DNA from: a virus
Strand: one strand, 5' to 3'
IMG/VR virus record: IMGVR_UViG_3300021387_001054
Length of the DNA stretch: 64,000 nt
Shown here: positions 34,101 to 59,700 of the stretch, one piece after another
Position numbering within the stretch: position 1 is the stretch's first letter
How the letters are laid out: every line of letters starts with the position of its first letter
Made by a program: the position numbers and the translations under genes
Notes under the pieces: generated by a model
What the model was told of the DNA's origin: nothing
The model's input: only the letters and a program-made list of their open reading frames with translations
The model's database searches: none

Positions 34101-36408
34101 CGAAGAAATCATTGTTCGTAATGGTAAATGGTTTACTCTCAATAATGGCTATCCTACTTTTGCAAAACTCCGGCGCGGTGACATAATTTTCAATCATAAA
34201 CAAACAGAAGAATTGTTGAAGAATGGTTATGTCACCAATTCTCATGCTCGTATATTTGGTGCGGCTCGTGCAGCAGGAACAGTCAGCGGTACTGCATTTG
34301 CAACTGGAACGAAAAAATCTAAATCATCTAAGAATACATCTTCTGATAAAACAACAATTGATTGGCTTGAAATTCTGCTTGACCGCGCAGAACGTGCCGT
34401 TAAAAAACTGACTGATAAAGTTGGAAACACTTTTGCAAAGTACACATATCGTTTACAAGATGTTGCAAAAGCAATTACATCTACTCAGTCTGAAATCGCC
34501 AAACAACGCAAGGCGCAAGCTGCTTATCAGAAAAAAGCAAATGCTGTAAAACTTTCTGCTGGCTTAAAAAAGCAAGTGCGCGAAGGTGCATACTATATTT
34601 ATGATTATGATGAGAAAACCCAAAAACTCATTAACGATTATAAAGAGTGGTATGAAAAGAGTTTAGACGCCAAGGATGCTATTGATGAATTAACTGAATC
34701 GTTAGGCGAGTTAGCGCAGAAGGCGTTTGACATTGTATCAAAAGAGTATGCGAATGAGTTTGATACATTAGAAAACCATGGAAAGTTGATTAGTGGCGCG
34801 GCAGACCTTGCAGAAGCAAGAGGGTACTTTGTTAATAGCGGCACGTATACCGATCTTATTGGTATGGAACAACGCAAACGCGATAAAGGCATTAAACAAT
34901 ACAATGACTTAAAAGCACAACTTGATAAAGCTGTAAAATCCGGCGCGGTCGCAAAATTTTCCGAAGAATGGTGGGCGATGTCGAACGAGGTTCGTGAAGC
35001 CTCTATTGCAATTCAAGAGTGCGATGTAAGCATTGCAGAGTTCCAGCAAAAGATCAATGAGTTGAACTGGGAGAAGTTTGATTATCTGCAAGATACAATT
35101 AGTAAAGTAATTGACGAATCTAATTTCTTAATTGATTTATTGGAAGATTCGGATTTATTTACTGATTCGGGTCAGCCTACATCTGAAGGCTGGGCAACGA
35201 TTGGATTGCACAGTTCTAACATTAAAGTGTATCAAGATCAAGTTAAGCAATACGCCAAAGCTATTCAAGATGTAGACAAACAACTCGCCAACGATCCGTA
35301 TAATAAAGAACTGATTTCTCGCAGAACTGACTTATACGAAGCGCAACAAAAAGCTATTCTAGCAGCCAAAGATGAAAAGAAGGCTATTTCTGATTTAATC
35401 GAAGATGGTATTGATAAGCAAGTCGATCATATTAAAACTCTGATTGATACTTATACAGATGCTTTAGATGAAGCAAAGAGTTTATATGATTATCAGCGGA
35501 AGGTCACTGACCATACCAAAGAAATTGCTGCTATTCGTAAACAAATTGCGGCTTATAGCGGCGATGAATCTGATGAATCCAAAGCACGTATTCAGAAATT
35601 ACAAGTTGACTTAGAAAATGCAGAGAACGATCTTAAAGATACTGAGTATGATAAATATGTATCTGACACGAAGAAATTATTAGACAATTTCTATACACAG
35701 TACAAAGAAGATATGGAACGCCGTGCCGAACATTCTGATTCGTTGGTAGATGAATTGATTGGACAAGTAGACAGTCATTCCACAGAAATCAATGATGTTA
35801 TTCGGACTACAGCAAAAGATGTTGGTTATACGTTATCTTCTTCTATGAGCACACTAATCAGTGACACAAATGGTGGATTAACAAATATTACATCTATGTT
35901 GCAAACCATTAGTGACTACATAAAAGAGATGGCTGATGTTGCGGGTAAAACAGAGTTAAATAAAAACGGAGATCCTGTTGTGAACAGCAATGGCGAAGTT
36001 CAGTATGTAAAACCCAAAAAATGGGTATCTCGAACCAGTATCACGACAGGAGATCCTTCTAAGAGAGTAATTTCTGCTGACAGTAATGGCGCATCTATGC
36101 TCTCAACGATGAGTAATTTGCGTCCTATAACTCATCGTACCATTGGCGTTAAACCAACAATGTACCGCAATGGCAATAGTTTATTAAGTATGCCTGCCGT
36201 CGGATATGACACTAATAGCACAGGTGGCAATATCAATATCGCGGCAACAGCTAATGTAAGTATCGACCATGTATCTGACTACAATGATTTTGTAACGCAG
36301 TTACAGCACGACAAACAATTTGAATCTATGATTCAGTCCATGTCTGTTGATCGTCTTGTCGGCAAAACGTCTTTAGCCAAGAATAAATATAATTGGAGAA
36401 ATAATTAG
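31063..36408 (+). CDS. Tail tape-measure protein, C-terminal portion (start uncertain)
   Basis: Long coiled-coil protein with tandem about 16-aa repeats (AMLDYIKSHQDNPDD, x3-4 at about 33690-33870). The first 27 codons of the listed ORF overlap the antisense gene and are probably not coding. The first in-frame ATGs with a Shine-Dalgarno sequence are 31561/31582 (aaggtgg-N4-ATG), but TMP-like coding continues upstream to about 31195. Confidence 0.55.
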   Translation: MSYPQFGQIKALLDTSSLPHSGHLISAIYHPSLQKLYHILQLKEIGNIFKALQNGKNFGDIKDSLDGLTKFGRAVTGKGLARLHAKGAIDDSTWKAARNRLGLDASDAANAASLIDTVSGKVNSLKTALSGLKQIGSNGLSTIASGLQQIISAGEGATNIFQGVWAMLKQGGTMFMGSSLPIVAMIAAATVALKKAYDAAHEYENAHQKAVDSQSSYDSTISEIDTLNSKLDTTKQRLNELRTMRSNGTISVTDKAELDRLERENTELETRQKLLEGEAKRQQRTASIDAVGALKAKEQSQYMKEHGYETEEAVNYTDKITAVRQDLQYLDQLYRNRSDLEQRLISAYNSGDTKTQDNLKSQLNDNEAEIEKYHETLSKTMPEIEKYRDTLQQDTNLGSIAGGEQALTAASQLMNMWQNIGTSQSAAEKTLSQLNTFFDGSSNNTAIKDQIIEMMDAATPASDALHMLGLSLQDLGVEATPENLAAFNKYFGELKQQAEDAATSVKTLQDEVDGTMSGIATAMESQNAGANYEQLDQYLTKAKSLYDSGLVGTDDFKTVAKMISTGGADIEKAVQDFSTNYANLQKYFTKDSSGNFTRTGIDKFVSDLEATGKTFHSTAEAADALGISAGAFEVILGRLGDYDIKKYGDNAFDGMVKSAAAFEQAKENLSQLQTLYDNMDEGGRKDALGDKLSNWESQIDKAQTDLESLDTDIVLQMKLEYDLDSLRNEIDEARSVAQAGGDATTWATAISKQQKYTQVSEHAMGIDREGIELPVSYKIAKESFADLQSQLKEAVDNGDTELIAKLQPQVENAGELVNSLDDAIRESKPELSPTLDVSEANKQLSDWEAQSRNTKLVKEAYINYITGGQEAPEEMDALMDYILAHQDNPEDTQAMLDYIKSHQDNPDDMQAMLDYLLKHQDDPNPMKAALDYWKRTQEGATQSNTKVNYRRGSQEGPAPKTAFVHYIASGVAGAVRRAKDWVSQHAPHAQGTAHAFGSWGLHKNQTSLINELGEEIIVRNGKWFTLNNGYPTFAKLRRGDIIFNHKQTEELLKNGYVTNSHARIFGAARAAGTVSGTAFATGTKKSKSSKNTSSDKTTIDWLEILLDRAERAVKKLTDKVGNTFAKYTYRLQDVAKAITSTQSEIAKQRKAQAAYQKKANAVKLSAGLKKQVREGAYYIYDYDEKTQKLINDYKEWYEKSLDAKDAIDELTESLGELAQKAFDIVSKEYANEFDTLENHGKLISGAADLAEARGYFVNSGTYTDLIGMEQRKRDKGIKQYNDLKAQLDKAVKSGAVAKFSEEWWAMSNEVREASIAIQECDVSIAEFQQKINELNWEKFDYLQDTISKVIDESNFLIDLLEDSDLFTDSGQPTSEGWATIGLHSSNIKVYQDQVKQYAKAIQDVDKQLANDPYNKELISRRTDLYEAQQKAILAAKDEKKAISDLIEDGIDKQVDHIKTLIDTYTDALDEAKSLYDYQRKVTDHTKEIAAIRKQIAAYSGDESDESKARIQKLQVDLENAENDLKDTEYDKYVSDTKKLLDNFYTQYKEDMERRAEHSDSLVDELIGQVDSHSTEINDVIRTTAKDVGYTLSSSMSTLISDTNGGLTNITSMLQTISDYIKEMADVAGKTELNKNGDPVVNSNGEVQYVKPKKWVSRTSITTGDPSKRVISADSNGASMLSTMSNLRPITHRTIGVKPTMYRNGNSLLSMPAVGYDTNSTGGNINIAATANVSIDHVSDYNDFVTQLQHDKQFESMIQSMSVDRLVGKTSLAKNKYNWRNN

Positions 36409-36411
36409 TTT

Positions 36412-36442
36412 GGGGGGGAGGGTTTGCCCCCCCTCCCATTTT
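36412..36442 (+). terminator. G7/C7 stem-loop followed by ATTTT
   Basis: gggggggagggtttgccccccctcccatttt. Confidence 0.35.
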
Positions 36443-36481
36443 GGCGCATATGTTAACAATAGAAATTGAAAGGATTAAAAA

Positions 36482-36775
36482 ATGAGAATACGTCAAGCGC
36501 GACAACGCCAGTATCTTATTGAATTAGCACAAGAGAATAAAATTCTCTTAAAAGAAAACGAGCGGTTGCGTACTCAATTAGAAGAGCAAGAAGAAATAAC
36601 TGCTCAAATTGTAAATAAATATGAACAAGATCATAAAGAACACCAAGAGCAATTGGAACGATTAAGAAAAATAGAAATTGAGTATCAAGATTTAATGCGA
36701 CAAGCAAGAAAAACTCAACATGATTATTCTAGCGATATGCAATTTTTGCTAAAGCAGTTGAATATAATAACTTGA
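36482..36775 (+). CDS. Small coiled-coil protein (97 aa)
   Basis: Heptad-rich Q/E/L sequence. Confidence 0.4.
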   Translation: MRIRQARQRQYLIELAQENKILLKENERLRTQLEEQEEITAQIVNKYEQDHKEHQEQLERLRKIEIEYQDLMRQARKTQHDYSSDMQFLLKQLNIIT

Positions 36776-38065
36776 TTGGAGGTGTTGCAAATGTATATCC
36801 GTGACTTTGAATATGACGGACAAAGGCTGAGTGATTTTGGTTTTATTGTAGGCAATGTTGATGGTAACGCAGGAACAGAATCAATCAATCCTGGCTATGA
36901 TTTAACATTTAACACAGTAAGCACACGGTACGGTCAACGGTGGCTATCGGCGGGGACGCAATATGATGAATGTTTGCAATCATCCATTCAAATTTGCAAA
37001 GACCCATGTTGTGCAGATGGGTTAGCTATTACTTCTACAGAATATCGCAATCTTGTACGATGGCTCAATCGTAAACAATTTTTACCGTTTCGTGCTATAA
37101 ATACTAGCAATAATTTATTGATGGACGTTTACGCACCGAGCCTAAAAAAAGTTAATGCCCCTGCGGATCGTTACCTATCAGATGCCGCCAATATAAATAC
37201 AACCGGTGCTTTTGTAGGAGTATTCGACCTCCCCGATCCAAAGGCGAATTATGTATACCGCATTACTTCGACAGATGGTCAACGACGCATGTTATGCTGG
37301 TACGCTGGCACACACCCCCCGCTGCACGTTGGTTTAACTTATCGTATGTCGTGTTATGCAAAAGCGAATTCTGGAAACCCTAATTTGCGTTTATTTGTAA
37401 ATGCAGTAGCCAGCCAGTTTTTTGAATTAACATCTGAATGGAAACGCTACGAGTATGTATTCACCGTTCCGGTCTACGACGGCACCCCCCCCGATCAATA
37501 TATGCGTGTATATTTTGGGCTAGGCGAATCGTCTGGCGCATGTGAGCTTGATATGTGTGGGTTTCGACTTGAACAAGTATCAGATATTTTATGGTGCGAT
37601 GCTAGTTTTAATATGACTAAGACTATGGTTGATGGGCGTTGTTATGGCGTTGAATTGACAATGCAAACAAATCGACCGTTTTGTTATGGTGATACCATCT
37701 CCCAAACGCTAACTTTTGATGAAGTTAATGCAACGGCTACCATAGATAACCAGTCTGATGAGTTTGGATATATGTATCCGACTGTAGTAATTACATGCAA
37801 GCAGGCCGGAGATTTAACTTTAACAAATACTTTTGCTGATTGTACGACTGTCATTAAAGGATGTTCGTCTGGCGAAAAAATTACTATGTCCGGCGATACG
37901 CAAATTATTACTACATCAAAATCTAGTCATAAACTCTCAAAAAATTTTAACTTTGAATTTTTGAGATTGAATCGTTCTTATGAACAATCAGACAATATTA
38001 TATCAGCCTCTCTCCCCTGCACAGTGAAAATTACATATAATCCAATTATAAAAGATGTATGGTGA
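36776..38065 (+). CDS. Distal tail protein (Dit) with an inserted carbohydrate-binding-like module
   Basis: Position between the tape-measure protein and Tal. The internal about 155-aa module (LLMDVYAPSLKKVNAPADRYLSD...CGFRLEQVSD) recurs twice in the 44971 gene. Confidence 0.45.
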   Translation: MEVLQMYIRDFEYDGQRLSDFGFIVGNVDGNAGTESINPGYDLTFNTVSTRYGQRWLSAGTQYDECLQSSIQICKDPCCADGLAITSTEYRNLVRWLNRKQFLPFRAINTSNNLLMDVYAPSLKKVNAPADRYLSDAANINTTGAFVGVFDLPDPKANYVYRITSTDGQRRMLCWYAGTHPPLHVGLTYRMSCYAKANSGNPNLRLFVNAVASQFFELTSEWKRYEYVFTVPVYDGTPPDQYMRVYFGLGESSGACELDMCGFRLEQVSDILWCDASFNMTKTMVDGRCYGVELTMQTNRPFCYGDTISQTLTFDEVNATATIDNQSDEFGYMYPTVVITCKQAGDLTLTNTFADCTTVIKGCSSGEKITMSGDTQIITTSKSSHKLSKNFNFEFLRLNRSYEQSDNIISASLPCTVKITYNPIIKDVW

Positions 38066-38071
38066 TGTGGA

Positions 38072-41000
38072 ATGGATATAAAGATTAAATTCGACGACGA
38101 ATGTATGCCACAGACTCCTACATTTGTACTTGCTACACGCAGCGGAGAGTATATTGGCGCGGTGCCTGCTGTTAATATTACGTGTAAAAACCCATGGAAT
38201 GCTAATGCTGATTTAATGTTTCGAGTCTATAAATATGATAATGACGTAGAGTATCAATACTGGCATGAATTAAAAGACTTTAGATTGGTTTGGTGTAGAG
38301 AATGGAATGCGTGGTTTGAGATTTCAGTAGAGTTAGAAGAAGCTCCTCATATATCAAAAATTATTACTTGTACTTCTTTAGCAGAAGCAGAATTGGGACA
38401 AATCATGTTATATGAGACTGAAATCAATACTGAGGATGATATTGCTCGTTCTGATTATATACCGACAGTGTTATATCAACCAGACAAACCGCGAGGTTCT
38501 TTATTAACGCGCATACTCAAAAAGGCTCCAAACTATATCATTGAACATGTAGATGACAGCATTAAAAATATCCAACGAACTTTTTCATTTCACGATGTGA
38601 GTATTTACGATGCTTTTCAAACTATTACAGAAGAAATAGATTGTATTGCGATCTTTCGCGCTTATACTACAGATACAGGGGAAATTAAACGCTCTATATC
38701 TGTATATGATTTAGAAAATTCTTGTTCTGCATGTGGTGAACGAGGAACTTTTGAAGATATATGTCCAAAATGTGGCAGCACAAATATAACACCCGGATAC
38801 GGAGAAGACACTACTGTTTTTGTTTCAGTAGATAATTTAGCTGATAATATTAACTACACTACGGATGTAGGTTCTGTTAAGAATTGTTTCCGGTTAGAAG
38901 CTGGGGACGATTTAATGACTGCGGCGATTGTGGCTTGTAACCCGAATGGAACACAATATTTGTGGCATTTTTCGGACGATATGAAAAGCGATATGTCGCA
39001 AGCATTAGTAAAAAAAATCAACAACTATGACCAACTTTATCAATCATACCTCACCACCCACGAGATTAGTATTGAAAACACTAAGTTATTGCAACAATAT
39101 AACCAGATTGTTACGAAATATAATAATTTACATTCACAAAATTTTTCAACCATTGAATCGCCTTTGCATGGTTTTTCAGAACTAATGCGTGCGTACTACA
39201 ATGTCATAGATTTTGATTTGTATTTATCCCACGGTATGATGCCATCCCCTCCCCCCGCTCCTGATTCGGCTACCGAGCAAGCAACATTGTTAGAGACGGA
39301 GCATATGCCTGCTGTAGCTGTATTATCTATACCAAAGTGTACAGTTTCTACAGCATCAAGTGCGGTGCAGGCTATGGCTCGTGTAGTTGTAGACCCTCAC
39401 TTCCAAGTTCGCGTCGGAGACAGTGCATTGAGTGATATAACAACAGAAGCATCTGGGGAGCAATATCGGCAATGGACAGGCACGTTTGTTATTACGAATT
39501 ATGATGATGATACTGATACGGCTACAACTAATAGTATTTCTATTAGAATCACAAACGAATATATAAGCTATGTTCAGCAACGTATGCAGTCTCTTTTGGA
39601 TCGACACAGTGAAGACGCTTCAGATATTGTTACTTTATTTCAGTTACCCATTGCTAACTTTAAGCAAGAATTAAAAAAGTATGGACAAGCATCTTTGCAA
39701 ATATTTTATGATGCTTGTCAGTCTTGTATGGATGTTTTAATTCAGCAACAGGCGTATGCTGATTACACAGATGTAGCAACAAGTTATTATAACAATTATT
39801 ATGAACGATTATCTGCTTTATCTGATGAATTAGCCGTGAGAGCATCGGAGATTGCTGTTGTGTCTGGACAACAGGTTGGAGTGGTTGCGGGGCATAGTAT
39901 GTTAGAAATCTTACAGGCTAAACGCACCAAAATTCAAGCAGCACTAGATTTTGAAACTTATTTAGGTGAAAATTTATGGTTAGAATTTTCGTTATATAGA
40001 CGAGAATGCTCGTTCTCGAACAGCAACTATATTTCTGATGGCTTAGATAATTTTCAGTTATTTCAACGCGCACAAGAGTTTTTTGATAAAGCATCCCAAG
40101 AGATTTATAAATCAGCCAATTTGCAACACTCTATTACCGCTACTCTAAAAAATTTGTTAGCTATGGAAGAATTCAAACCTTTAGTTCAACATTTTCAGTG
40201 TGGTAATTGGATTCGTATTCGAGTCGATGACAATGTTTATCGTTTGCGTTTAATAAGTTATGACATAGATTTTGATGATTTAACACATATAACAGTTGAA
40301 TTTTCAGATGTAAAGCAAGTTTCTAATGGTGTAACTGACGCAGAAAGTATTTTTGCACAAGCCAAACAAATGGCAACCTCTTACACTGCAACACAGAGAC
40401 AGGCCAGTAAAGGCAATAAGAGCAGCCGACAAGTGCAAAATTGGGTAGACGATGGTTTATCATTAACTACCATGAAGATTGTGAATGATGCTAGTAATCA
40501 AGATATTGTTTATTCTGATAGTGGCATTACGTTACGCGAAAAAATCCCGTTCACCGACGAATATGATCCGCGCCAAATTAAATTGATAAATCAAGGGTTG
40601 TATGTCACGAATGATAATTGGCAAACGTCCAGCGCAGGGGTTGGACACTTTTATTATTATGATCCTGCTACTGGAAACATCGTTGATGATTATGGTGTTA
40701 TAGCAAATACTATTGTCGGTAACTTATTATTAGGTAAGAATTTAGGTATTTATAATTCAGACGGCAGTGTAACAGTTAATGAGAATGGATTGACTTTAAC
40801 AACAAATACTGATGATGACCAATCGCAAAAAAATATCTTCACCATACAAAAAGAAACGGATAATCAGGATGGCACAAAAACAACCATTCCCCTCTTATAC
40901 ATTGATGACGACGGAAACCTTGTCTTAAACGGTTCGATGAAAATTGTATCTGATATTGAAGGAGTTACTACACGTACCTTTGACGATGTCGCTGCGGATG

Positions 41001-41290
41001 TAGACGAGATCAAATCGCAAGACAGATATCGTGTTGAAACGGTTGTATCTGGTGTCAACATTTTTAATTCAAGAAACCAGAGCAGTCGCATGGAATGTCA
41101 TGTGTATTCGTGGGATAAAGATATCACTGATACTATAAATGCTTCGTGCTTTGCGTGGCATCGTCATTCTGCGAACCCAAACTCAGACGCGACATGGGAT
41201 GCCGCTCATAAAGGCATGAAATATATTGTTGTATCAACAGAAGATGTGTTTCAGAATGCGTCGTTTACGTGCGAGGTTACGTTAGAATAA
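38072..41290 (+). CDS. Tail-associated lysin (Tal) / phage minor structural protein, 1072 aa
   Basis: Position after Dit and its size. Has an internal CSACG...CPKCG zinc ribbon. Confidence 0.5.
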   Translation: MDIKIKFDDECMPQTPTFVLATRSGEYIGAVPAVNITCKNPWNANADLMFRVYKYDNDVEYQYWHELKDFRLVWCREWNAWFEISVELEEAPHISKIITCTSLAEAELGQIMLYETEINTEDDIARSDYIPTVLYQPDKPRGSLLTRILKKAPNYIIEHVDDSIKNIQRTFSFHDVSIYDAFQTITEEIDCIAIFRAYTTDTGEIKRSISVYDLENSCSACGERGTFEDICPKCGSTNITPGYGEDTTVFVSVDNLADNINYTTDVGSVKNCFRLEAGDDLMTAAIVACNPNGTQYLWHFSDDMKSDMSQALVKKINNYDQLYQSYLTTHEISIENTKLLQQYNQIVTKYNNLHSQNFSTIESPLHGFSELMRAYYNVIDFDLYLSHGMMPSPPPAPDSATEQATLLETEHMPAVAVLSIPKCTVSTASSAVQAMARVVVDPHFQVRVGDSALSDITTEASGEQYRQWTGTFVITNYDDDTDTATTNSISIRITNEYISYVQQRMQSLLDRHSEDASDIVTLFQLPIANFKQELKKYGQASLQIFYDACQSCMDVLIQQQAYADYTDVATSYYNNYYERLSALSDELAVRASEIAVVSGQQVGVVAGHSMLEILQAKRTKIQAALDFETYLGENLWLEFSLYRRECSFSNSNYISDGLDNFQLFQRAQEFFDKASQEIYKSANLQHSITATLKNLLAMEEFKPLVQHFQCGNWIRIRVDDNVYRLRLISYDIDFDDLTHITVEFSDVKQVSNGVTDAESIFAQAKQMATSYTATQRQASKGNKSSRQVQNWVDDGLSLTTMKIVNDASNQDIVYSDSGITLREKIPFTDEYDPRQIKLINQGLYVTNDNWQTSSAGVGHFYYYDPATGNIVDDYGVIANTIVGNLLLGKNLGIYNSDGSVTVNENGLTLTTNTDDDQSQKNIFTIQKETDNQDGTKTTIPLLYIDDDGNLVLNGSMKIVSDIEGVTTRTFDDVAADVDEIKSQDRYRVETVVSGVNIFNSRNQSSRMECHVYSWDKDITDTINASCFAWHRHSANPNSDATWDAAHKGMKYIVVSTEDVFQNASFTCEVTLE

Positions 41291-41433
41291 TTGAGTCAAT
41301 TACCCACCCACTAAAGTGAGTGGGCTTGTAACTCCCCAGTAGTGCGAACGTCTTGTGACTCCTACCTTTGGCTTATCTGATTACTCAGATAGTGGGGTTA
41401 CATCGCAGGGTGATTGACTGCACCCTTATCATC

Positions 41434-42588
41434 TCAGACGTGCTGAGATGATACTGTATCCGGTACTTGACTATCCTTTGCAAGATAGTTGATTCCCATG
41501 CGATACAGATTCATTGCTCCGATACGGTCATCATTGGACGTGTAACCGCAAGATTTACAGCAGAAGATATGCTTATTTTTATCACGGTTAGACTTTTCCG
41601 TGTGACCGCAAACAGGACAGGTCTGGCTCGTATAACGAGGGTCTACGTTAATTACTAGACTCTCGTTGAGCGCAGCCTTATACTTTAACTTCTTCTCCAG
41701 GTCGTAAAACGACCAAGATACGGTAACATAACGGTCTTTGCGACGCACCTTCTCTGTGGCAGAACGAACGCCGGACAGGTCCTCTAAGACAAAGAGCGTG
41801 TGCTTCGGGTTAGACTCAACGAGTGCCTTTGATACACAATGGTTTACATCCTGCATCCAACGGTTTTCTCGCTGACCGATAGCTTTTAGCCTTCGTCTTG
41901 CAGAAGGAGTCTGTCTTTGCTGAAGTTCCTTGCGGAGCTGTTTGTACTTAGCACGTTTTTGCTTAATATTCCTGCCGCTTACAAAGCCGGACTTATGTTT
42001 GCTGTCATAGGTTGCAACGACAAAGTTAATACCCCTGTCTACGCCGACAACATTACAAACGTCGCAATCCAAGGCTTCAAGGATATCTCTGGTAACTGGG
42101 ATATGCAGAAAATACTTGCCATGCTTTTTCACAAGTTTGGCAGTGCCAAAGGAGTAGATATCGTGGTCAAAGTATTTCTCCATGCCACCAGAATAGTATG
42201 GCAGCTTCACACGACCGCTAAGTGTATTTACAGAGAACAAGTTCTGCGTAAGAGAATAGTCTCTATTCCACACAAGGTCGTATTGAGGATTAGAAAAATC
42301 TGGCTTAATCCATTCATGTTGGTTTTCTAAGATGGTTTTGTATCTTGCAATAACCGTCTTAAAAACAGATTGTGCCATCTGGGATTTTAAGCCATAGCGC
42401 TTACGGAGATCATAATACAATGCCTTATTAAGCGAAAACTGCTTCAGGTCATGCGTCTGGAAGATGTAATTTGCCACAAAGTTACACGCACTGCGATAGG
42501 TGTCCATAGTAACATCCAACAGCTCACGCTGTTCGGGTGCAACTCGGACCTGAATCTTTGCAGTAGTAGTGATTTGCATCAGTAACAT
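41434..42588 (-). CDS. tnpB: TnpB (OrfB) RuvC-like RNA-guided endonuclease of IS200/IS605
   Basis: RuvC-I VVGVDRGINF, RuvC-II LFVLEDLSG, zinc finger CPVCG...CKSCG, RuvC-III NDDRIGAMN. Confidence 0.85.
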   Translation of the reverse strand: MLLMQITTTAKIQVRVAPEQRELLDVTMDTYRSACNFVANYIFQTHDLKQFSLNKALYYDLRKRYGLKSQMAQSVFKTVIARYKTILENQHEWIKPDFSNPQYDLVWNRDYSLTQNLFSVNTLSGRVKLPYYSGGMEKYFDHDIYSFGTAKLVKKHGKYFLHIPVTRDILEALDCDVCNVVGVDRGINFVVATYDSKHKSGFVSGRNIKQKRAKYKQLRKELQQRQTPSARRRLKAIGQRENRWMQDVNHCVSKALVESNPKHTLFVLEDLSGVRSATEKVRRKDRYVTVSWSFYDLEKKLKYKAALNESLVINVDPRYTSQTCPVCGHTEKSNRDKNKHIFCCKSCGYTSNDDRIGAMNLYRMGINYLAKDSQVPDTVSSQHV

Positions 42589-42662
42589 CTCCCTTCATTG
42601 TATTTCACTATAAATTATTATAGCATGGATTTAGTGAATACACAATAGGAGGAACTAAATTT

Positions 42663-43067
42663 ATGCAAAACCGCTATAATCGCAGAAATAGACGCAAATA
42701 CAATCTTAAAGTGCATATCGTACTTGTGACCAAGTATAGGAAAGCGTTGTTGCAGAATGGTATCGACGACTTCGTAAAACGTGCTATAAGCTATCTCGCA
42801 GACCAAAACGACTGGACAATTATCGTTATGGAAACGGACAAGGATCACGTTCACATACTTCTGGAATATGACGCAACAGAACGCATCTGTGACATCATCA
42901 GCATCATCAAACAGAGAACAACACATTGGCTCTGGACACGCTACAGAAATATATTAAATAAGCAATACTGGGAAAAACACATCTTCTGGTCAGACGGATA
43001 CTTTGCCTGTAGTATTGGAGAAGTATCATCTGCAACCATTGAAAAGTATATAGCCGAACAAGGCTAA
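42663..43067 (+). CDS. tnpA: IS200-type Y1 HUH transposase TnpA
   Basis: HuH motif HVHIL. C-terminal Tyr block (RTTHWLWTRY...SDGYFACSIG). 134 aa. Confidence 0.8.
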   Translation: MQNRYNRRNRRKYNLKVHIVLVTKYRKALLQNGIDDFVKRAISYLADQNDWTIIVMETDKDHVHILLEYDATERICDIISIIKQRTTHWLWTRYRNILNKQYWEKHIFWSDGYFACSIGEVSSATIEKYIAEQG

Positions 43068-43147
43068 GAAAGGAGAAAGCGGCTCCTCCCACCTGCTAAA
43101 GCAAGTGGGTTTCCGCCGCTAAATGATTTTATGAAAGGATTATATAA

Positions 43148-44962
43148 ATGGCTATTTTAACCAGTTCTCCGCAGACATTTATTGATATTACCGATCAACG
43201 TAAATTATCTGCGTATATAACTGCTAATTTGCCGAAAGTACAAACGGAAGACCCGAATGTGTTACCGCATGAATACGAGCCGGATTGGACAACGACAAAA
43301 CTTAAATTAACGCCCGTAGTGTTCCTCGACCAAACTGAAATTGGTCTTAAAGAAACCGGCTTAACTATCTCATGGAAACGTAAAGATGGTTCTGGCGCGG
43401 AAACATCATTAGTGTCCGGCGAATCTGTCAGTAATGGTATTTTGACAATTTCTAAAAATGTACTACCTACTTCAAGTAGTGGCATGATTACTTATCTTTG
43501 TCATATTAGTTTTTACGACAGTGAAACGCAAAGCACTGTAAAGATTACATCTGATTTGACTTTTACTCTTGTCAAAAACGCATCTAATGCAAGATTAGCT
43601 TATGTGACTGCTGACACTTATGTATTCAAATATAATACAAATTCGACTTTAGTTGGAGCAAAACAGGCTACTCTGAGCGGACAAGTACAAGGTGTGCAAA
43701 TTTCTAAATGGCAATATAAAAATAGTTCAGGTAATTGGGTGGATTATCCGACCACTTCTGATAACGATAATATCACAAGTGATACTCTAATCGTGAAACC
43801 AACTCATGCAGTATTTGTGAGCAATGTTGCTCAAATTAAATTAGTAACGGATGATGCAGATGTTTTTGATACTATTAGCATTACAAAGTTATATGATGGA
43901 GCGCAAGGCAGCGGTGGCGTAGGAGGTTTATCTGTAGTTCTCGGAAACGAAGCACAGACTATTGCGTGCACGAAGGATGGCTTAGTTGAATCTGCTTTTA
44001 ACATTGAAATACCTTTTTCTGCTTATCAAGGTACAACTCAGATTGCATGTTCATGTACGGTTGGTACTTTGCCTTCTGGTATAACAATTAAAACCAATAC
44101 TGCGGCTACAGCAAGTGCCGCAGGTAAATTGATTCTAGCGGTAGAAGCCAATGGGACATTAGGTGGTAAGAATGTCGTAAATGGTTCTATTACTCTTACT
44201 TTTGCTGTTTCTGATAAATCTGTCGTTAAGAATTTTACATGGTCTAAATCAACGAAAGGCGCAACGGGAGAACCGGGTGCGGCCGGTAAAAACGCGGTCG
44301 TTTTCTCTGTTTATGCTCCTAATGGAACAATCGTTCAGAATCAATCTGGTTCTATTACATTGGCGACTGCTGCATACGACGGCGGCGATGAAATTACGTC
44401 CGACGCGACATACCAATGGGCGAAATATGTAAGTGGCAAATGGACAAATATCAGTGGCGCAACGTCCGCTACATTAAGTGTGTCTGGCAGCGATATTGTT
44501 AATATTCAATCGTATCGTTGTACCATGACATATTCTGGGACTACTTATAAAGACATTATTACAGTAGAAGATAAGTCTGACCCGTATGTATCTGAAATGT
44601 TGAGTATTGGTGGTTTTACAGTCAAAAACGGACAAGGTGGATTAGTGCCGTATGTCATTGTTCGTACAAACCAAAAAGAGGTAGATGCTCTTAAAGGTAT
44701 TATAAGTACAACAGCACCAAGTAATCCAACAACTGGAACATTTTGGTACGCTATAGATCACAGTGCTAAAACTGTGACATTAAAAAAATATTCTGGTTCA
44801 GCGTGGAAAAACGCAACAGAAAAACAGTCTTTAACTTATACATGGTACAAACAAGATAAAAATGGCAATGCAGTTACCTTCAATAAGACCGGTAAAGTAA
44901 TTTATTTATCAGCCGATGATATAGATGTGTTGGCAACTTTGCAATGCGACGTGACACAGTGA
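43148..44962 (+). CDS. Tail fibre / receptor-binding protein 1
   Basis: N-terminus MAILTSSPQTFIDITDQ is paralogous to the N-terminus of the 44971 gene. Ig-like, S/T-rich beta-type sequence and a short collagen-like GATGEPGAAGKN. Confidence 0.45.
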   Translation: MAILTSSPQTFIDITDQRKLSAYITANLPKVQTEDPNVLPHEYEPDWTTTKLKLTPVVFLDQTEIGLKETGLTISWKRKDGSGAETSLVSGESVSNGILTISKNVLPTSSSGMITYLCHISFYDSETQSTVKITSDLTFTLVKNASNARLAYVTADTYVFKYNTNSTLVGAKQATLSGQVQGVQISKWQYKNSSGNWVDYPTTSDNDNITSDTLIVKPTHAVFVSNVAQIKLVTDDADVFDTISITKLYDGAQGSGGVGGLSVVLGNEAQTIACTKDGLVESAFNIEIPFSAYQGTTQIACSCTVGTLPSGITIKTNTAATASAAGKLILAVEANGTLGGKNVVNGSITLTFAVSDKSVVKNFTWSKSTKGATGEPGAAGKNAVVFSVYAPNGTIVQNQSGSITLATAAYDGGDEITSDATYQWAKYVSGKWTNISGATSATLSVSGSDIVNIQSYRCTMTYSGTTYKDIITVEDKSDPYVSEMLSIGGFTVKNGQGGLVPYVIVRTNQKEVDALKGIISTTAPSNPTTGTFWYAIDHSAKTVTLKKYSGSAWKNATEKQSLTYTWYKQDKNGNAVTFNKTGKVIYLSADDIDVLATLQCDVTQ

Positions 44963-44970
44963 GGTGAAGT

Positions 44971-47900
44971 ATGTCAATTTTAACATCTTGTCAAAACACA
45001 TTTATGGATTTAACCGATCCTGTTGGAATTAGTAATGTTTCGGAACATTATGCTGTATCTTCCTCTAATAGTACGCCCCCAACAAAATGGTACGACACGC
45101 CGCAGACCATGACGATCACGAATAAATATTTGTGGAATTACGAAACAATTACTTACTCTAACAACACAACCAAAGATACGGATAAACGTGTTATTGGTGT
45201 TTATGGTAGTACCGGTAAAGGCATTTCTAAAGTTACAAATTATTATCTTGCGACTTCTTCATCATCTGGAATTACAACATCAACATCTGGATGGTCAGAA
45301 GACGCTGAATCCCAAAATGTCACGCCGTCTAAAAAGTATTTGTGGAACTACGAGAAACTAACATACACGGATAATAGCATATACTCTACCGATCCATGTA
45401 TCATAGGAGCATATGGTGAAAAAGGGGACAAAGGTGATCGCGGTACAGCCGGAACGACCTCGAATCTGCTGCTAGACGTCTACGCGTCCACGCTGAAAAA
45501 GGTTGACGCACCGGCTGACCGGTATCTGTCGAACAGCAAAAACACAAACACAACCGGCGCGTTTGTAGCGGCAAGTGATCTGCCCGACCCGAATGCCACA
45601 CATGTGTACCGCGTTACCTCGACGGACGGGAAACAAAGAATGCTGTGTTGGTACGCTAGTGGACATCCCCCACTGCTTGTTGGCGCAACCTACCGTCTGT
45701 CGTGTTACGCAAAAGCCAACAGCGGAAGTCCGAAGCTGCGCTTTGAGATCAACAGTGTCGGGCACAAAACCTTTGACATCACGGACGAGTGGAAACGGTA
45801 TGAATTTACCAAAACGATACCGATTTACGACAGCACACCTCCCGACACTTATCTGCGAGTATATTTTGGATTAGGTGATTCATCCAACGCATGTGAGTTG
45901 GACCTGTGCGGATTTCGTGTAGAGCAAGTATCGGATGGCATATTTGGACTTGCTGAACACTATGCGGTATCGTCTTCTAATACCACTGCTCCGAGTACAT
46001 GGTATGACACCCCGCAAACCATGACCCCCACTAAGAAATACCTGTGGAATTACGAGACGGTCACTTACGCGGACGGAACGACTAAAGACACCACGAAACG
46101 TGTCATCGGTGTGTATGGTAATACAGGCAATCCGGGAGTCGCAGGTAAAGGAATATCTGCGGTCACGAACTACTATCTTGCAACCGCATCATCTTCTGGT
46201 GTAACGACTACTACTTCTGGATGGACAACTACAGTACAAAATGTAACTTCATCTAAGAAATATTTATGGAACTATGAAAAGTTAACGTATACAGACAGTT
46301 CCACATATTCTACTGACCCGTGTATCATAGGAGCATATGGTGACACAGGAACGCGAGGAGCCACATGGTATGCAGGAACAGCGATTTCCGGAGGTAGTTC
46401 GGTATCTGCAAAGGTGTTTGATAACTCTGGTATAACCTCTGCTATCGTAGGAGATGTTTACTTAAACACGAGCACTCAAGACACATACAAGTGTGTTAAA
46501 GCAGGAAATGCAGCAACCGCACAGTGGACATATTTGAGTAATATCAAGGGCGCAACAGGATCGCCTGGAGGAAAAGGCACAGACGGGAAAACCGCATATT
46601 TTCACGTCAAGTATAGCAATGATGGTGGAAAAACTTTTACAGGAAATTCTGGAGAAGACCCCGGTACTTATATTGGTACATATACTGATAATACATCTGC
46701 GGATAGTACGTCTGTTTCAAAATATACTTGGGTGAAAATTGAAGGCGAAGACGGTGTTAGTCCAACTGTGTCTACGTCAAAATCTGGCGCCACAACAACT
46801 ATTACAATTAAAGACGCACAAGGAATAAAAACAGCAACCGTAAAAGACGGGGACAAGGGTGACAAAGGTGATAAGGGAACATCGGGTATGAGCGCAAATT
46901 TGCTGATGGACGTTTATGCGTCTACACTAACAAAAATCGACGCACCGGCTGACCGGTATCTGTCGAACAGCATAAACACAAACACAACCGGCGCGTTTGT
47001 AGCGGCAAGTGATCTGCCAGACCCGAATGCTACGCATTTGTTCCGTATTACCTCTACTGACGGGAAAACTCGCATGTTATGCTGGTACGCTGGCACACAC
47101 CCCCCGCTGTTTACAGGGGCGACCTATCGCCTGTCATGTTATGCGAAGGCAAATTCCGGCAATCCGAAGTTGCGTTTATTTGTTAATGGAGTTGAGACAA
47201 AAACAGTTAACACTACCTCAGAATGGAAACGATATGAATTAACGGTAACTGTATCGGAATACGATGGAACTCCAGATAGTAATTACCTTCGTGTTTATTT
47301 CGGACTAGCTACATCGTCGGGCGCGTGTGAGTTGGATATGTGCGGATTCCGCGTTGAACAAGTATCAGAGGATATTTTAGATATCAAAGATACTGCTAGT
47401 AGAGCATTAACTTCTGCTGACGGAAAAAATAAAGTGTTTTATCAAAAGACAGCTCCGACTTCTGGCATGAAAACGAATGATGTATGGTTCAATACAAAAA
47501 AAGACAAAGACCATACTATGAATGTTTATGATGGAACACAGTGGGTGTTGCATAAGGCTGGAACAACGTCAATTTCACAAGGAGCAATCACTACAGATTT
47601 ACTCGCTGCGAATGCTGTAACGGCAGATAAAATATTGGCAGGAGAAATTGGGACAGACCAATTAGCTGCGAATGCTGTGACAGCTGCAAAAATAAATGTA
47701 AAGGATTTGTTTGCACAAAATATCGAAGCAACAGGAACAATCAAGGGTTTAACATTAGAGGGTGCACAAATTCGCGGAAAACAAATTGATATATGTAATT
47801 TGCCTGCGGGCGATTATGACGTATTAGAGCCGCGCTGCTCTATATCTACAAACACAGACACGAATAGTTTGGTCTTAGAAGCCAAAGAGGGTGGCTCTAC

Positions 47901-48456
47901 AAATGCTAAATCAATACAAATCAATCCATATAATATATACATTGGCTCCCCAAAAGGAGGAGACATTATCCTTGCAGGCGAGACTGAATTCACAGAAACC
48001 CCTTATGTTTTAAAAGGGGGAGTCGTTTATCCCATAGACGCTTGTATCACTGGAATATACTTGGATGGGGTGATAGAGACTTGGCGATATGAGTGGCATA
48101 TAGGCGGTAGACTTCGTTTAACTATGAAGATTCCAGTAAACCCTGCTGTTAAAACCGCTTTGGGTAATAGCTATCGTAGTGGGTACTGTTATACTCCATC
48201 TGATTATAAATACCCATCATCTATTCTAGATCCAAACACTGACCTAGACGTTGCCATAAAATTCTCTCAAGTTCCTGTTGTGCAGATGACATTTACCCCG
48301 ACTAACAATCAAGGTGCATTCGTTTGGGCTACCGACTCTGGAACAACAACAACTCCCCCTCATTGTTATTTAGTTCGTCCTACCAGTTCAGATAGCGTAC
48401 AGGGATGGATTAACATTATTGTTGATGGAGAGTGGGAATACACAAATACTGAATAA
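44971..48456 (+). CDS. Tail fibre / receptor-binding protein 2 with tandemly duplicated [YLWNYE domain + collagen-like GDKGDKG + CBM] units
   Basis: Two copies of the about 155-aa CBM-like module (about 45440-45920 and 46890-47360), two copies of the upstream about 140-aa domain, and a C-terminal fibre domain. Confidence 0.5.
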   Translation: MSILTSCQNTFMDLTDPVGISNVSEHYAVSSSNSTPPTKWYDTPQTMTITNKYLWNYETITYSNNTTKDTDKRVIGVYGSTGKGISKVTNYYLATSSSSGITTSTSGWSEDAESQNVTPSKKYLWNYEKLTYTDNSIYSTDPCIIGAYGEKGDKGDRGTAGTTSNLLLDVYASTLKKVDAPADRYLSNSKNTNTTGAFVAASDLPDPNATHVYRVTSTDGKQRMLCWYASGHPPLLVGATYRLSCYAKANSGSPKLRFEINSVGHKTFDITDEWKRYEFTKTIPIYDSTPPDTYLRVYFGLGDSSNACELDLCGFRVEQVSDGIFGLAEHYAVSSSNTTAPSTWYDTPQTMTPTKKYLWNYETVTYADGTTKDTTKRVIGVYGNTGNPGVAGKGISAVTNYYLATASSSGVTTTTSGWTTTVQNVTSSKKYLWNYEKLTYTDSSTYSTDPCIIGAYGDTGTRGATWYAGTAISGGSSVSAKVFDNSGITSAIVGDVYLNTSTQDTYKCVKAGNAATAQWTYLSNIKGATGSPGGKGTDGKTAYFHVKYSNDGGKTFTGNSGEDPGTYIGTYTDNTSADSTSVSKYTWVKIEGEDGVSPTVSTSKSGATTTITIKDAQGIKTATVKDGDKGDKGDKGTSGMSANLLMDVYASTLTKIDAPADRYLSNSINTNTTGAFVAASDLPDPNATHLFRITSTDGKTRMLCWYAGTHPPLFTGATYRLSCYAKANSGNPKLRLFVNGVETKTVNTTSEWKRYELTVTVSEYDGTPDSNYLRVYFGLATSSGACELDMCGFRVEQVSEDILDIKDTASRALTSADGKNKVFYQKTAPTSGMKTNDVWFNTKKDKDHTMNVYDGTQWVLHKAGTTSISQGAITTDLLAANAVTADKILAGEIGTDQLAANAVTAAKINVKDLFAQNIEATGTIKGLTLEGAQIRGKQIDICNLPAGDYDVLEPRCSISTNTDTNSLVLEAKEGGSTNAKSIQINPYNIYIGSPKGGDIILAGETEFTETPYVLKGGVVYPIDACITGIYLDGVIETWRYEWHIGGRLRLTMKIPVNPAVKTALGNSYRSGYCYTPSDYKYPSSILDPNTDLDVAIKFSQVPVVQMTFTPTNNQGAFVWATDSGTTTTPPHCYLVRPTSSDSVQGWINIIVDGEWEYTNTE

Positions 48457-48581
48457 AAAATTAAGGTTATATCCCCTATTTGTAATCAGACTTCAAAAGA
48501 GGTGATTGGTCTTTTATTTTTGATGCTTTAAGTTGTTAAATAAGAGTTTTTAACAATCCACTACCCTATTTATAAAAAGCG

Positions 48582-48983
48582 ATGTGTTTTATGGAGGTTT
48601 ATCAGATACTTTGTTTGCTCGGTCTTCCCTCTTTGGTGTCTGGTGCTGTTGTATATTGTGTGAAAAAAATTGTGGCTATGATAGAAAGAATCGAATGTGC
48701 CAAGCAACAACAGATTGATAATAGTCGCCACGAGATAGAGAAAATTCAGAACCGAATTGATCTATTAGAACACTCACAACAAGCACAGTTAAGAGATAGT
48801 CTGATAGCAAATTATGAAAAATATGCAGCCCAAGGTAGTGCGCCCCTTTATGCAAAAGATAATTTTGAAAATTGTTGGATGTGGTATCACAGCTTGGGTG
48901 CTAACGGTGTCATGGACGATATTCACGCAAAGTTCATGGCACTACCTATACATCCCGAAGGAGATGATTCAAATGAGAATTGA
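48582..48983 (+). CDS. Membrane-anchored coiled-coil protein in the lysis cassette (133 aa)
   Basis: N-terminal TM segment and coiled coil. Overlaps the holin start. Confidence 0.3.
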   Translation: MCFMEVYQILCLLGLPSLVSGAVVYCVKKIVAMIERIECAKQQQIDNSRHEIEKIQNRIDLLEHSQQAQLRDSLIANYEKYAAQGSAPLYAKDNFENCWMWYHSLGANGVMDDIHAKFMALPIHPEGDDSNEN

Positions 48984-49248
48984 TGTTACAAAAATCAGTT
49001 CGGCAACTGTAACACGTTTTATTGTTTTAGTATTAGCTTTAGTCAATCAAGTTCTGTCAGCGTCCGGGCACCCTGTTCTTCCCATTGATGACGCTCAAGT
49101 TGAAATGTTGGTTACTTCCCTGTTTACTGTGGGTTCTGCCCTCGTCGGTTATTGGTTTGACAACGATGTTACTCGTTATGCGATTGAACGCAAAAAAGCC
49201 GGAGAGGAAATTATGTCCGCTCAAGAAGATACTGTAGATACATACTAA
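48973..49248 (+). CDS. Holin (phage phi-LC3-family-like), 91 aa
   Basis: MRIDVTKISSATVTRFIVLVLALVNQVLSASGHPVLPIDDAQVEMLVTSLFTVGSALVGYWFDND has the two-TM layout and pattern of phiLC3-type holins. ATG at 48973 is in frame within the listed 48814 ORF. Confidence 0.5.
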   Translation: MRIDVTKISSATVTRFIVLVLALVNQVLSASGHPVLPIDDAQVEMLVTSLFTVGSALVGYWFDNDVTRYAIERKKAGEEIMSAQEDTVDTY

Positions 49249-49255
49249 GAGTTAA

Positions 49256-49290
49256 GGAGCTGTCGGACTTCGGCAGCTCCATTTTATTAT
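49256..49290 (+). terminator. Rho-independent terminator (10-bp stem ggagctgtcg/cggcagctcc, then ATTTTATT)
   Basis: ggagctgtcggacttcggcagctccattttatt. Confidence 0.65.
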
Positions 49291-49301
49291 GAGGTGAAAT
49301 A

Positions 49302-49586
49302 ATGTTTATAGACGTTGTAAGGAAAGAAATTACAGCTAATTCTCCCGAAACATTTCAATTAAAAATCAGTGCTTGCAGTTTTCAGGTAAAGAATTTCACT
49401 GATGGCGCCGTATTGGTATGCTTAGATCATTGGAATGAAGATGAATCTGTAATGATTGGCGCGGGTATGTGTGAGGTTATCAACAGTAATCCAGACTTTG
49501 ACCGTGGCATGACACGCACGCCAACAAATAAGGTTGTTGTCAAAGGCGAACAGTCTGGTTTGGTAGAAGTTATTCGTTTTGACTAA
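49302..49586 (+). CDS. Hypothetical protein (94 aa)
   Basis: RBS gaggtga. Confidence 0.4.
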   Translation: MFIDVVRKEITANSPETFQLKISACSFQVKNFTDGAVLVCLDHWNEDESVMIGAGMCEVINSNPDFDRGMTRTPTNKVVVKGEQSGLVEVIRFD

Positions 49587-49664
49587 TAGTGTAATCTTAT
49601 TTGTATTTTTTATTCATCGTACTTCTGTGACATTATCACAGAAGTTTGCAAAGAAAGGACTACT

Positions 49665-50192
49665 ATGATTGAAAGAAAATCAATAATTGCCTCTACCCTT
49701 GGCGTTCAAAATCATGGTGGCAGTGGTGGAGATGTAGATTTAAGTGAATACAGGAAATATGTAGATCAAGATGTGATTGATGCGGCACTGACTGCGAAGG
49801 TGACGGCATTAGAAGATAAAGCCGAACGCTTTGTTGTACATTGTACTGCCTCTTCTATCCCGCCTTTTGGAGGAGCATTTGATATTGCTACTGATAAATC
49901 GTTCAATGATATATTATCTGCATACAACAGTAATAGAGAGGTATGCGCTATTTTGACGTCATCCGCAATGCAAGGTGTTGCATTCCTTACAGGCATTGCT
50001 CCGGATGCTGCTATATTTTACACTCTCATTACTTTAGGTTCGCAAAGCAATCTTATGTACTTACTCGTTTGTATTAGTAACGATAAACCGTTTGGCGTAT
50101 TGATGTCTGCAACATATGATGATACTGATATTTCTAATCGCGTTTCCGCACTGGAAACCGCGCTGACAGGACTAGACGAGGTGATCGGATGA
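49665..50192 (+). CDS. Hypothetical protein (175 aa)
   Basis: ORF with RBS aaggac. Confidence 0.4.
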   Translation: MIERKSIIASTLGVQNHGGSGGDVDLSEYRKYVDQDVIDAALTAKVTALEDKAERFVVHCTASSIPPFGGAFDIATDKSFNDILSAYNSNREVCAILTSSAMQGVAFLTGIAPDAAIFYTLITLGSQSNLMYLLVCISNDKPFGVLMSATYDDTDISNRVSALETALTGLDEVIG

Positions 50193-51700: not shown

Positions 51701-51753
51701 TCCGCAAACCCCTAATCTGGCTCCCTTTGTGGGGCCAGATAGGATTTGTCGGC

Positions 51754-51806
<53 letters not shown>

Positions 51807-57051: not shown

Positions 57052-57435
57052 ATGATAAGATTAGATGAAAAGGATTTTACAACCTTACACTTAACTCGTG
57101 GTGATAGATGTACTTTTAGAGCATATGTTATTGATAGTAAAACAAGAGAACGATATACTTTTCCAGCTGGTTGTTGGGTAAGTTTTGTAATCATTGATAA
57201 ATTAGGCTATACTTTAGAAAATCCACTTCTTAGAAAGAAAGTTTATGTACCAGAAGACACACTTGAAGTAGAATTTACTTTAACAGCTGAAGATACTAAG
57301 ATAGGTGATATGATTGATAAAAAACAAAAATATTGGTATAATATCGTTGTTAATGATGATATAACTATACTTGGTAGTGATGAAAAAGGAGAAAAAGTAA
57401 TTATAATTTATCCAGAGGTAGGTGAGAAAAGATGA
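57052..57435 (+). CDS. Hypothetical protein (127 aa)
   Basis: ORF. Confidence 0.35.
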   Translation: MIRLDEKDFTTLHLTRGDRCTFRAYVIDSKTRERYTFPAGCWVSFVIIDKLGYTLENPLLRKKVYVPEDTLEVEFTLTAEDTKIGDMIDKKQKYWYNIVVNDDITILGSDEKGEKVIIIYPEVGEKR

Positions 57436-59606: not shown

Positions 59607-59700
59607 TTAAGAAACTATTTATAGTTTCTTTTTTATTTACTTTTAATTAATTCCATGTTATAATTTAGTTATGAAAAACTATTTGAAAGGAGATATTCAA

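Follow-up and report, generated by a model that had tools for sequence, protein, structure and literature searches.

A cassette resembling carbohydrate-binding modules shared by the distal tail protein and the tail fibre of a phage probably infecting gut Clostridia, with signs of exchange between its slots

The tail region of the virus record IMGVR_UViG_3300021387_001054, of which a stretch of 64,000 nt was analyzed (hereafter the window), contains three copies of a 158-aa module: one within the distal tail protein (Dit) and two within a tail fibre gene downstream. A direct-repeat search of the window yields one family of three in-register copies, spaced by 8351 and 1434 nt, and a six-frame hidden Markov model scan finds the same three copies and no more. 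Together with copy bounds set at the protein level, these searches confirm a first-pass annotation of the DNA, which had placed the module once in Dit and twice in the gene beginning at 44971. The two carrier genes, the cassettes and the tracts of high identity between them are as follows.

36776-38065, plus strand: evolved distal tail protein (Dit), recognized by its DUF6558 domains, Dit fold and position after the tape measure protein gene
37112-37585, plus strand: cassette A, residues 113-270 of the Dit open reading frame (ORF), a predicted CBM4-like module (CBM, carbohydrate-binding module) in a Dit loop
44971-48456, plus strand: tail fibre and putative receptor-binding protein, 1161 aa, with matches to tail-fibre and host-specificity PHROGs and to Pfam CFSR (collagen-flanked surface repeat)
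45463-45936, plus strand: cassette B in fibre slot 1, residues 165-322 of the fibre ORF, with 56% GC at third codon positions (GC3)
46897-47370, plus strand: cassette C in fibre slot 2, residues 643-800 of the fibre ORF
37286-37324, plus strand: A-C tract of 39 nt, identical at 39/39 positions to 47071-47109, a short gene-conversion tract
47071-47109, plus strand: partner of the A-C tract, 39/39 identical to 37286-37324
45505-45602, plus strand: B-C tract of 98 nt, identical at 94/98 positions to 46939-47036, a gene-conversion tract
46939-47036, plus strand: partner of the B-C tract, 94/98 identical to 45505-45602
45415-46848, plus strand: 1434-nt unit made up of cassette B, a repeat region and a middle region, delimited by blastn of the relatives L022, L023 and L025 against the window

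The Dit protein exceeds the Pfam gathering cutoffs for both DUF6558 (residues 6-112, E 6e-29, 101.3 versus 24.1 bits) and DUF6558_C (residues 309-421, E 3e-30, 105.5 versus 24.4 bits). Its gene follows the tape measure gene (31063-36408) and a 97-aa ORF (36482-36775) and precedes a Tal-like gene for a 1072-aa protein (38072-41290), which is the canonical position of Dit. A PDB sequence search with a profile of the Dit family returned no relative, and the assignment therefore had to come from the fold: Foldseek matches the Dit model to the SPP1 Dit (2x8k, E 8e-6, TMt 0.62), and further to the 80alpha baseplate Dit (6v8i_AC), a monocin tip (9j1k_K), the Douge baseplate (8zdo_m) and 9m8o, with the NF5 baseplate also among the matches. 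The Dit-like fold and the location after the tape measure gene support an assignment as Dit and, with the insertion, as an evolved Dit. Of 471 Dit homologs 120 were listed, almost every one of them ~270 aa in length, and the ~158-aa insertion is missing from all 39 that were aligned; it is clean, taking the place of a short variable loop between the WLNRKxFLxF and ASFNxxK motifs. The domains, the fold and this comparison bear out the earlier identification of the first carrier as an evolved Dit. The family resides in prophage-like loci of gut Clostridia metagenome-assembled genomes (Eubacteriales, Lachnospiraceae, Oscillospiraceae, Mogibacterium, Tyzzerella, Christensenella and others); at 19 such loci the short form of Dit was present in 19/19, and no module was found in the flanks (up to 10 kb on each side, several contigs being shorter). 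The annotated Dit ORF begins at a TTG codon (36776), probably 6-15 nt too far upstream, since homologs and population alleles begin with MYIRDF.. (ATG at 36791) or MLQMY... The first of these ATG codons is the probable start and yields a 424-aa form. A BLASTP match between Dit and the fibre reaching beyond the module (46% over 305 aa) was rejected as spurious, having ~20% identity outside the 158 aa and being obtained with composition correction off.

No further large structural gene lies between the second carrier and the holin. Short collagen-like GxY runs stand directly ahead of each of its cassettes, and a protein 100% identical to its product (P0269) is present in public data. The C-terminus of the fibre yielded no usable match in a PDB sequence search. 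The first-pass annotation had taken the gene to encode a receptor-binding protein, a role to which its PHROG matches and gene context point.

The module is predicted with high confidence as an all-beta domain (AlphaFold, pLDDT 94.8, pTM 0.90). Foldseek ranks as its best matches CBM4 structures (1gui and 1gu3), CBM16, CBM22 and a porphyran CBM, and the predicted beta-jelly-roll is superimposable on those of CBM4, which agrees with the jelly-roll CBM expected from the sequence at first reading. A profile of 38 sequences searched against PDB recovers CBM4-type modules of known structure, namely 4qpw (E 1.7e-5) and 4mgs (E 2e-5), followed by 3jxs, 1k42, 1gui and the phi812 baseplate chain 9euf_8. 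Evolved Dits often carry the CBM fold of BppA, which resembles 1GUI/1GU3 (PMC7291167). Taken with the profile matches, this likeness would make the module a CBM4-like jelly roll of a kind already known on phage tails, as both the structural model and the sequence profile indicate. By analogy with such modules it would bind carbohydrate, and cassettes A, B and C most likely bind host cell-wall or capsular saccharides. An exhaustive HMMER search found the module in 281 representative proteins (E<=1e-3), mostly fibre-like and of 600-4000 aa, often with 2-3 copies at variable positions; one of them has a Prophage_tail (Tal) domain. A word-indexed homolog search with a 3-sequence module alignment returned nothing, though HMMER and full-length Dit searches found relatives. 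Residues N1, L3, D5, Y21, Y77, W110, C149 and G150 are invariant in the family (motif NLLxD...RY...CGFxLE), and the Pfam scans made here revealed no model specific to it. Its members score 20.6-28.9 bits on the Pfam family CBM_4_9, and P0173 alone passes the threshold (28.9 versus 25.9).

Within the window, the cassettes are well diverged: A and B share 70% of amino acids and 66% of nucleotides, A and C 72% and 68%, B and C 77% and 73%. Against this background stand the two tracts. The 39-nt identity between Dit and fibre slot 2 holds exactly as first described. The tract between the fibre slots is likewise real, with an exact run of 45 nt inside it, although its identity is 96% rather than 97% and its first arm ends at 45602 and not 45600. 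Both tracts are significant under codon-column shuffling (p<5e-5), which never reproduced either. With the count restricted to synonymous choices among codons for identical residues, the A-C run retains p=0.0016 and the B-C run is matched in 0/20000 shuffles; therefore, constraint at the protein level cannot explain the tracts. The first-pass annotation had named assembly collapse as what could undo them. This artefact is ruled out by the repetition of the arrangement elsewhere: two assemblies from different projects, L027 (ERZ12302812, 581x coverage) and L028 (ERZ28612970), match window positions 35004-51779 at 99.99% identity with all three modules included, and L001 is 100% identical to the window over module A. 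Both tracts are genuine, being more alike than chance would allow and found again in independently made assemblies.

The base composition and the divergence of the cassettes bear on where and when they arose. The modules contain 45% (A), 51% (B) and 47% (C) GC, compared with 38% in the window, so that the local GC of about 50% against 40% noted at first holds roughly for B and is overstated for A. Their GC3 (39% in A and 45% in C, next to the value for B given above) compares with 28-33% in the gene sequence on either side. This elevation of GC, strongest in B, then in C and then in A, suggests a source richer in GC, from which the cassette types probably came. Synonymous sites between the types are saturated (proportion of synonymous differences, pS, 0.61-0.81), dN/dS is about 0.1-0.2, and 27-34% of nucleotides differ. 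The closest outside relative, P0067, is a 730-aa collagen-like protein on an unrelated contig of 53% GC; its module shares 74-75% identity with B and C, against 65% with A, and thus comes as near to B and C as these are to each other, and it shares the context of cassette C (collagen-like run, module and 'LDIKDTA..' stalk). The next outside relatives of the module are at most 51% identical. The divergence, the saturation and the closeness of P0067 therefore mark the three types as old paralogs held under purifying selection. The recent duplication that had been proposed for the three copies is contradicted by the same observations; recent change is confined to the short tracts of the window and to the cassette swapping seen in its relatives.

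These swaps were found by comparing alleles drawn from 90% clusters of the fibre and of Dit, with each cassette typed against A, B and C and the DNA compared. The Dit slot holds an A-type cassette in most alleles. Leaving aside a start-codon difference, the Dit variants P0398 and P0402 have 4/4 substitutions inside the cassette. In the Dit of contig L022 (P0400), 48 of 52 differences fall inside the cassette, which is of B type: the scaffold matches the window at ~99% identity as far as ~37120 and again from ~37570, while the cassette is 67% identical to A and 97.3% to the cassette in the fibre of the same contig, including ~420 nt at 100%. The breakpoints coincide with the cassette edges, and the flanks of the Dit and fibre slots are unrelated. 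The first ~40 nt of this Dit cassette match none of A, B and C and are nearer to P0067 (ASGLAKVD versus ASRLAKVD).

Fibre slot 2 varies similarly, being of C type in window-type alleles and of B type in P0389, P0391, P0392 and P0395. In B/B fibres the two slots are 99% identical in amino acids and 98.5% in nucleotides, and the allele occurs in two samples (L023 and L024). The variant residues that distinguish P0389/P0391 from P0392/P0395 are the same in both slots within each protein. The fibre also varies in length, at 672, 1161 and 1639 aa, corresponding to 1, 2 and 3 cassettes and differing by the 1434-nt unit. This unit is missing in L022, with its 672-aa fibre and single cassette, and is tandemly duplicated in L025 and L026, independent assemblies of two samples that both encode a 1639-aa fibre with cassettes B, B and C. 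Both in L023/L024 and in L025/L026, two slots of one gene are 98.5-99.8% identical with unrelated flanks. Within genomes, the slots evolve in concert. The population survey suggested by the first-pass annotation thus yields Dit alleles with A or B and fibre alleles with B, B/C, B/B or B/B/C, and the exchange of cassettes among baseplate proteins that it proposed is borne out by whole-cassette replacement in the Dit slot and fibre slot 2 and by changes in copy number. As a separate observation, residue ~95 has changed to serine in all three types, by F95S in A (P0398/P0402) and in C (P0393) and by E95S in B (P0389/P0391). It lies in the window at 37394-37396, 45745-47 and 47179-81, within the most variable strand region (residues ~93-106), and its recurrent change could reflect selection or micro-conversion. 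Residues 115-129 also stand out as variable.

Such patterns might be expected of short-read metagenome assembly, if repeats were collapsed or joined into chimeras. At 39 and 45 nt, the exact runs exceed the length of small assembler k-mers, and the data consist wholly of metagenomic contigs. But the window arrangement recurs at 99.99% in two projects, one of them at 581x, and in L001; the B/B and B/B/C alleles are each found in two samples; and the 5' end of the L022 Dit cassette is present in none of the A, B and C cassettes. Replacement of a whole cassette would moreover need two switches at edges where the flanks of different slots share just 2-10 of 20 nt. Since key alleles recur and the switches would fall where no sequence is shared, chimeras are unlikely, and we give an assembly origin of the tracts and variants very little credence.

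A different account would have all three copies and the variant alleles acquired independently from other phages by horizontal transfer, with no exchange within the genome. It is favored by the GC content of the cassettes (45-51% versus 38%), by the proximity of P0067 to B and C, and by the first ~40 nt of the L022 Dit cassette, which resemble P0067 over any type in the window. It is difficult to reconcile, however, with Dit and fibre cassettes identical over ~420 nt in one genome, with near-identical slots between unrelated flanks in L023/L024 and L025/L026, or with variant residues shared between slots per protein in P0389/P0391 and P0392/P0395. External acquisition probably explains the origin of the types and not the swaps; as an explanation of the whole, it is distinctly improbable. 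Variable ligand-binding domains of phage tail fibres are also classic targets of diversity-generating retroelements, which, like other targeted mutagenesis, could in principle diversify the modules. Yet adenine bias is missing (33-43 of 126-160 inter-cassette mismatches involve A on either side), the differences come as replacements of whole tracts, and no reverse transcriptase was found among the 27 ORFs scanned with Pfam, a part of the ORFs in the window. We consider this mechanism to have next to no likelihood.

Exchange among slots remains the preferred explanation, and a mechanism can be proposed for it. We infer that Dit is a hexameric tail-tip hub of the DUF6558 type, which with a 158-aa jelly-roll in a surface loop would display six modules, and that the fibre probably trimerises through its short collagen-like runs, with two modules per chain in the window. 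The three diverged types would then provide multivalent and possibly multi-specific adsorption. The cassettes are 66-73% identical in nucleotides and include conserved stretches, so that homologous recombination acts on them. Gene conversion transfers tracts from slot to slot, ranging from 39-98 nt up to a near-complete cassette, and unequal crossing-over between fibre cassettes accounts for gain or loss of the 1434-nt unit; the 39-nt and 98-nt tracts of the window are small traces of this process. As a result, the phages of the population combine different cassettes, while their tails are otherwise ~94-100% identical. A pool of cassettes common to hub and fibre, with 1-3 CBMs per fibre chain, could alter the mix of specificities and the valency presented to a saccharidic receptor on a Gram-positive gut host, and cassette swapping would in this way change the host range.

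We take the locus to be the region through which a long-tailed phage adheres to its hosts, probably gut Clostridia. We judge it likely that the reading holds as a whole, with CBM4-like cassettes in Dit and fibre recombining among slots. Several observations weigh against it. All of the population evidence comes from metagenome assemblies, several of them independent. On Pfam CBM_4_9 (PF02018) the Dit copy stays below the threshold (18.6 versus 25.9, E 0.0025), and fibre copies B and C had no match to this family in the Pfam scan. The full-length Dit model is moderate (pLDDT 70.6, pTM 0.45, with the C-terminal domain at ~90). It places the insertion after a strand at 103-108 and before strands from 273, at position ~108 of the 140 in the Pfam N-domain model; the insertion may lie in the ring domain, a linker or a peripheral domain. 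The Tal and receptor-binding roles of the neighboring genes come from synteny and PHROG names and not from solved homologs.

The subthreshold scores of the window copies also agree with another view of the module, as a structural or decorative beta-sandwich (a spacer, stabilizer or assembly interface) that has no receptor role and recurs because of shared assembly contacts. The invariant residues look like core or structural positions, and jelly-rolls are also found in non-binding settings such as MAM, reelin and toxin domains. By contrast, true CBMs make up the great majority of the best structural matches, and several of these were solved with ligand. The module recurs in 281 representatives, often two or three times per protein and at differing positions, as adhesion modules typically do and fixed interfaces do not. 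Variation is concentrated in the cassette on conserved scaffolds, and a fixed interface would not tolerate the replacement of A by B in Dit at 70% amino acid identity. A purely structural role is therefore unlikely in our assessment. The reading of the cassettes as exchanged adhesion modules can be carried further, to a combinatorial adhesin: three slots and at least three types would be shuffled by frequent intragenomic conversion and unequal crossing-over, continually sampling combinations of receptor specificity and valency on a conserved tail, in a recombination-based process resembling antigenic variation in phages (possibly phage-plasmids) of gut Clostridia. We put this forward tentatively, as a possibility about which doubt prevails.

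The cassette-bearing genes are set among the following features of the tail region.

31063-36408, plus strand: tape measure protein, 1781 aa, assigned by PHROG 4211 (tail length tape measure protein), size and position
38072-41290, plus strand: Tal-like large tail-tip protein, 1072 aa, assigned by its position directly after Dit
41295-43130, both strands: IS200/IS605-family insertion with Pfam Cas12f1-like_TNB/OrfB_IS605 and Y1_Tnp, not part of the adhesion device
41434-42588, minus strand: TnpB of the IS200/IS605 element
42663-43067, plus strand: TnpA (Y1) of the IS200/IS605 element
43148-44962, plus strand: tail protein, 604 aa, PHROG 3267 (tail protein, E 2e-73), upstream of the fibre
48814-49248, plus strand: SPP1-type holin, Pfam Holin_SPP1 (E 2e-18), one of the small ORFs that follow the fibre gene, at the end of the tail module

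The Tal-like protein has no Pfam match and no PDB sequence match, and its C-terminal ~100 aa alone match a tail-fibre PHROG. A megablast search of positions 36000-48500 against 50,697 phage records matched only the TnpB part of the insertion (MT838989, 74%), and the region therefore has no annotated close relative in that set. The insertion occupies the short intergenic stretch that separates the Tal-like gene from the gene of the 604-aa tail protein; it is absent in L022, where these genes are 33 nt apart, and present in L023, L024, L027 and L028, and L001 ends inside it. Upstream, two tape-measure-like genes stand in series, a 762-aa one with PhageMin_Tail (27709-29997) and the 1781-aa one listed above, with a 231-aa ORF between them on the minus strand (30450-31145).

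Directly downstream of the lysis genes lies a gene for a 503-aa protein (50189-51700) with BspA-type LRR_5 and DUF6273, situated in an island of 55-60% GC in the 38% GC window and resembling a second foreign-looking surface or adhesion gene. The 99.99% identity with L027 and L028 ends abruptly soon after it, at 51779. Beyond this point the relatives (L027 16811-22892, L028 16844-22925, L023 9010-15091) encode a CBM_5_12 protein, Rep3_N (a replication protein), RHH, ParA and ParB, a set that suggests phage-plasmids; the window differs, encoding a metallophosphoesterase, a pectate-lyase-like protein and others. A 724-aa protein at 57432-59606 has a Pect-lyase_RHGA_epim domain and is a possible tailspike or depolymerase, and a small ORF at 59671-60210 has a sub-threshold collagen-repeat match (E 3e-4, 20.9 bits versus 27.2); both are outside the main tail module. 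Elsewhere in the window are a tyrosine recombinase with Phage_integrase and SAM-like N-terminal domains (12509-13471), a SocA/Panacea antitoxin-domain protein (3506-3949) and an SPFH/Band 7 protein (7089-7961). An 818-aa ORF at 8475-10931 matches Pfam PF05183 (RNA-dependent RNA polymerase, E 2.7e-17), a family that we take to include the YonO/crAss-type single-subunit phage RNA polymerases, and its product is possibly such a polymerase. The window contains no tRNA genes.

Evolved Dits, decoration of several tail proteins with CBMs and mosaicism of fibres are already established (PMC7291167, PMC6669499, PMC7533335), but good documentation of evolved Dits and of tails bearing CBMs is limited to dairy phages and further phages of lactic acid bacteria. 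The present locus extends the principle to a Dit family that is common in gut-Clostridia prophages. New here are the DUF6558 Dit family as a CBM carrier in gut-Clostridia phages, a module family that has no Pfam model of its own as far as the scans showed, the presence of one cassette family in both hub and fibre, which draw on one pool, and direct population evidence for hub-to-fibre cassette conversion and for alleles of 1, 2 and 3 copies. In a limited literature search, no description of intragenomic cassette conversion between Dit and a receptor-binding protein turned up. The module family can serve as a marker for annotating adhesion modules in gut phage fibres, and the near-isogenic natural alleles are usable for adsorption and host-range tests.

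The nearest known counterparts are the evolved Dits of siphophages of lactic acid bacteria (Lactobacillus phage J-1, lactococcal 936/Skunavirus, and Streptococcus thermophilus cos and pac phages). As in the window, a CBM is inserted in a Dit encoded downstream of the tape measure gene, and related CBMs are carried by other tail proteins of the same virion; the inserted CBMs are of BppA type and 1GUI/1GU3-like (PMC7291167), the same structures that top the Foldseek list of our module. By contrast, the scaffold here is the structurally uncharacterized DUF6558, which lacks a PDB sequence match, the hosts are probably gut Clostridia, and the insertion falls around residue 112 of the ~270-aa scaffold, close to the domain junction or at it, and possibly at a site other than the galectin-domain loops used in the described cases. 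The same cassette family is also found here in the fibre, and the population data show movement between Dit and fibre. The SPP1 Dit gp19.1 (2x8k) has the same two-domain fold (TM-score 0.60-0.62 normalized to the SPP1 chain) and the same position after the tape measure gene, but shares ~10% identity and has no CBM insertion. Among CBMs, the CenC-like CBM4 modules of CAZy and CBM_4_9 (Rhodothermus Xyn10A CBM4-2, 4bj0 and 1k42; Thermotoga Lam16A CBM4-2, 1gui) show profile similarity at E 2e-5 to 8e-4; however, identity to them is 13-19%, the window copies are below the Pfam threshold, and the module is found on virion proteins instead of glycoside hydrolases. The CBM-CenC baseplate protein of Staphylococcus phage phi812 (9euf chain 8) is a 640-aa component of a contractile tail and not a Dit, and corresponds in the CBM part alone (overall TM-score 0.18-0.25). 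Finally, general tail-fibre mosaicism, with its concerted evolution and unequal crossing-over, involves the same reshuffling of adhesion modules by homologous recombination, and the cassette swaps are a natural example of a known way in which phages probably change adhesion; here, by contrast, the exchange spans hub and fibre proteins in one genome and is seen in several states among near-identical natural genomes.

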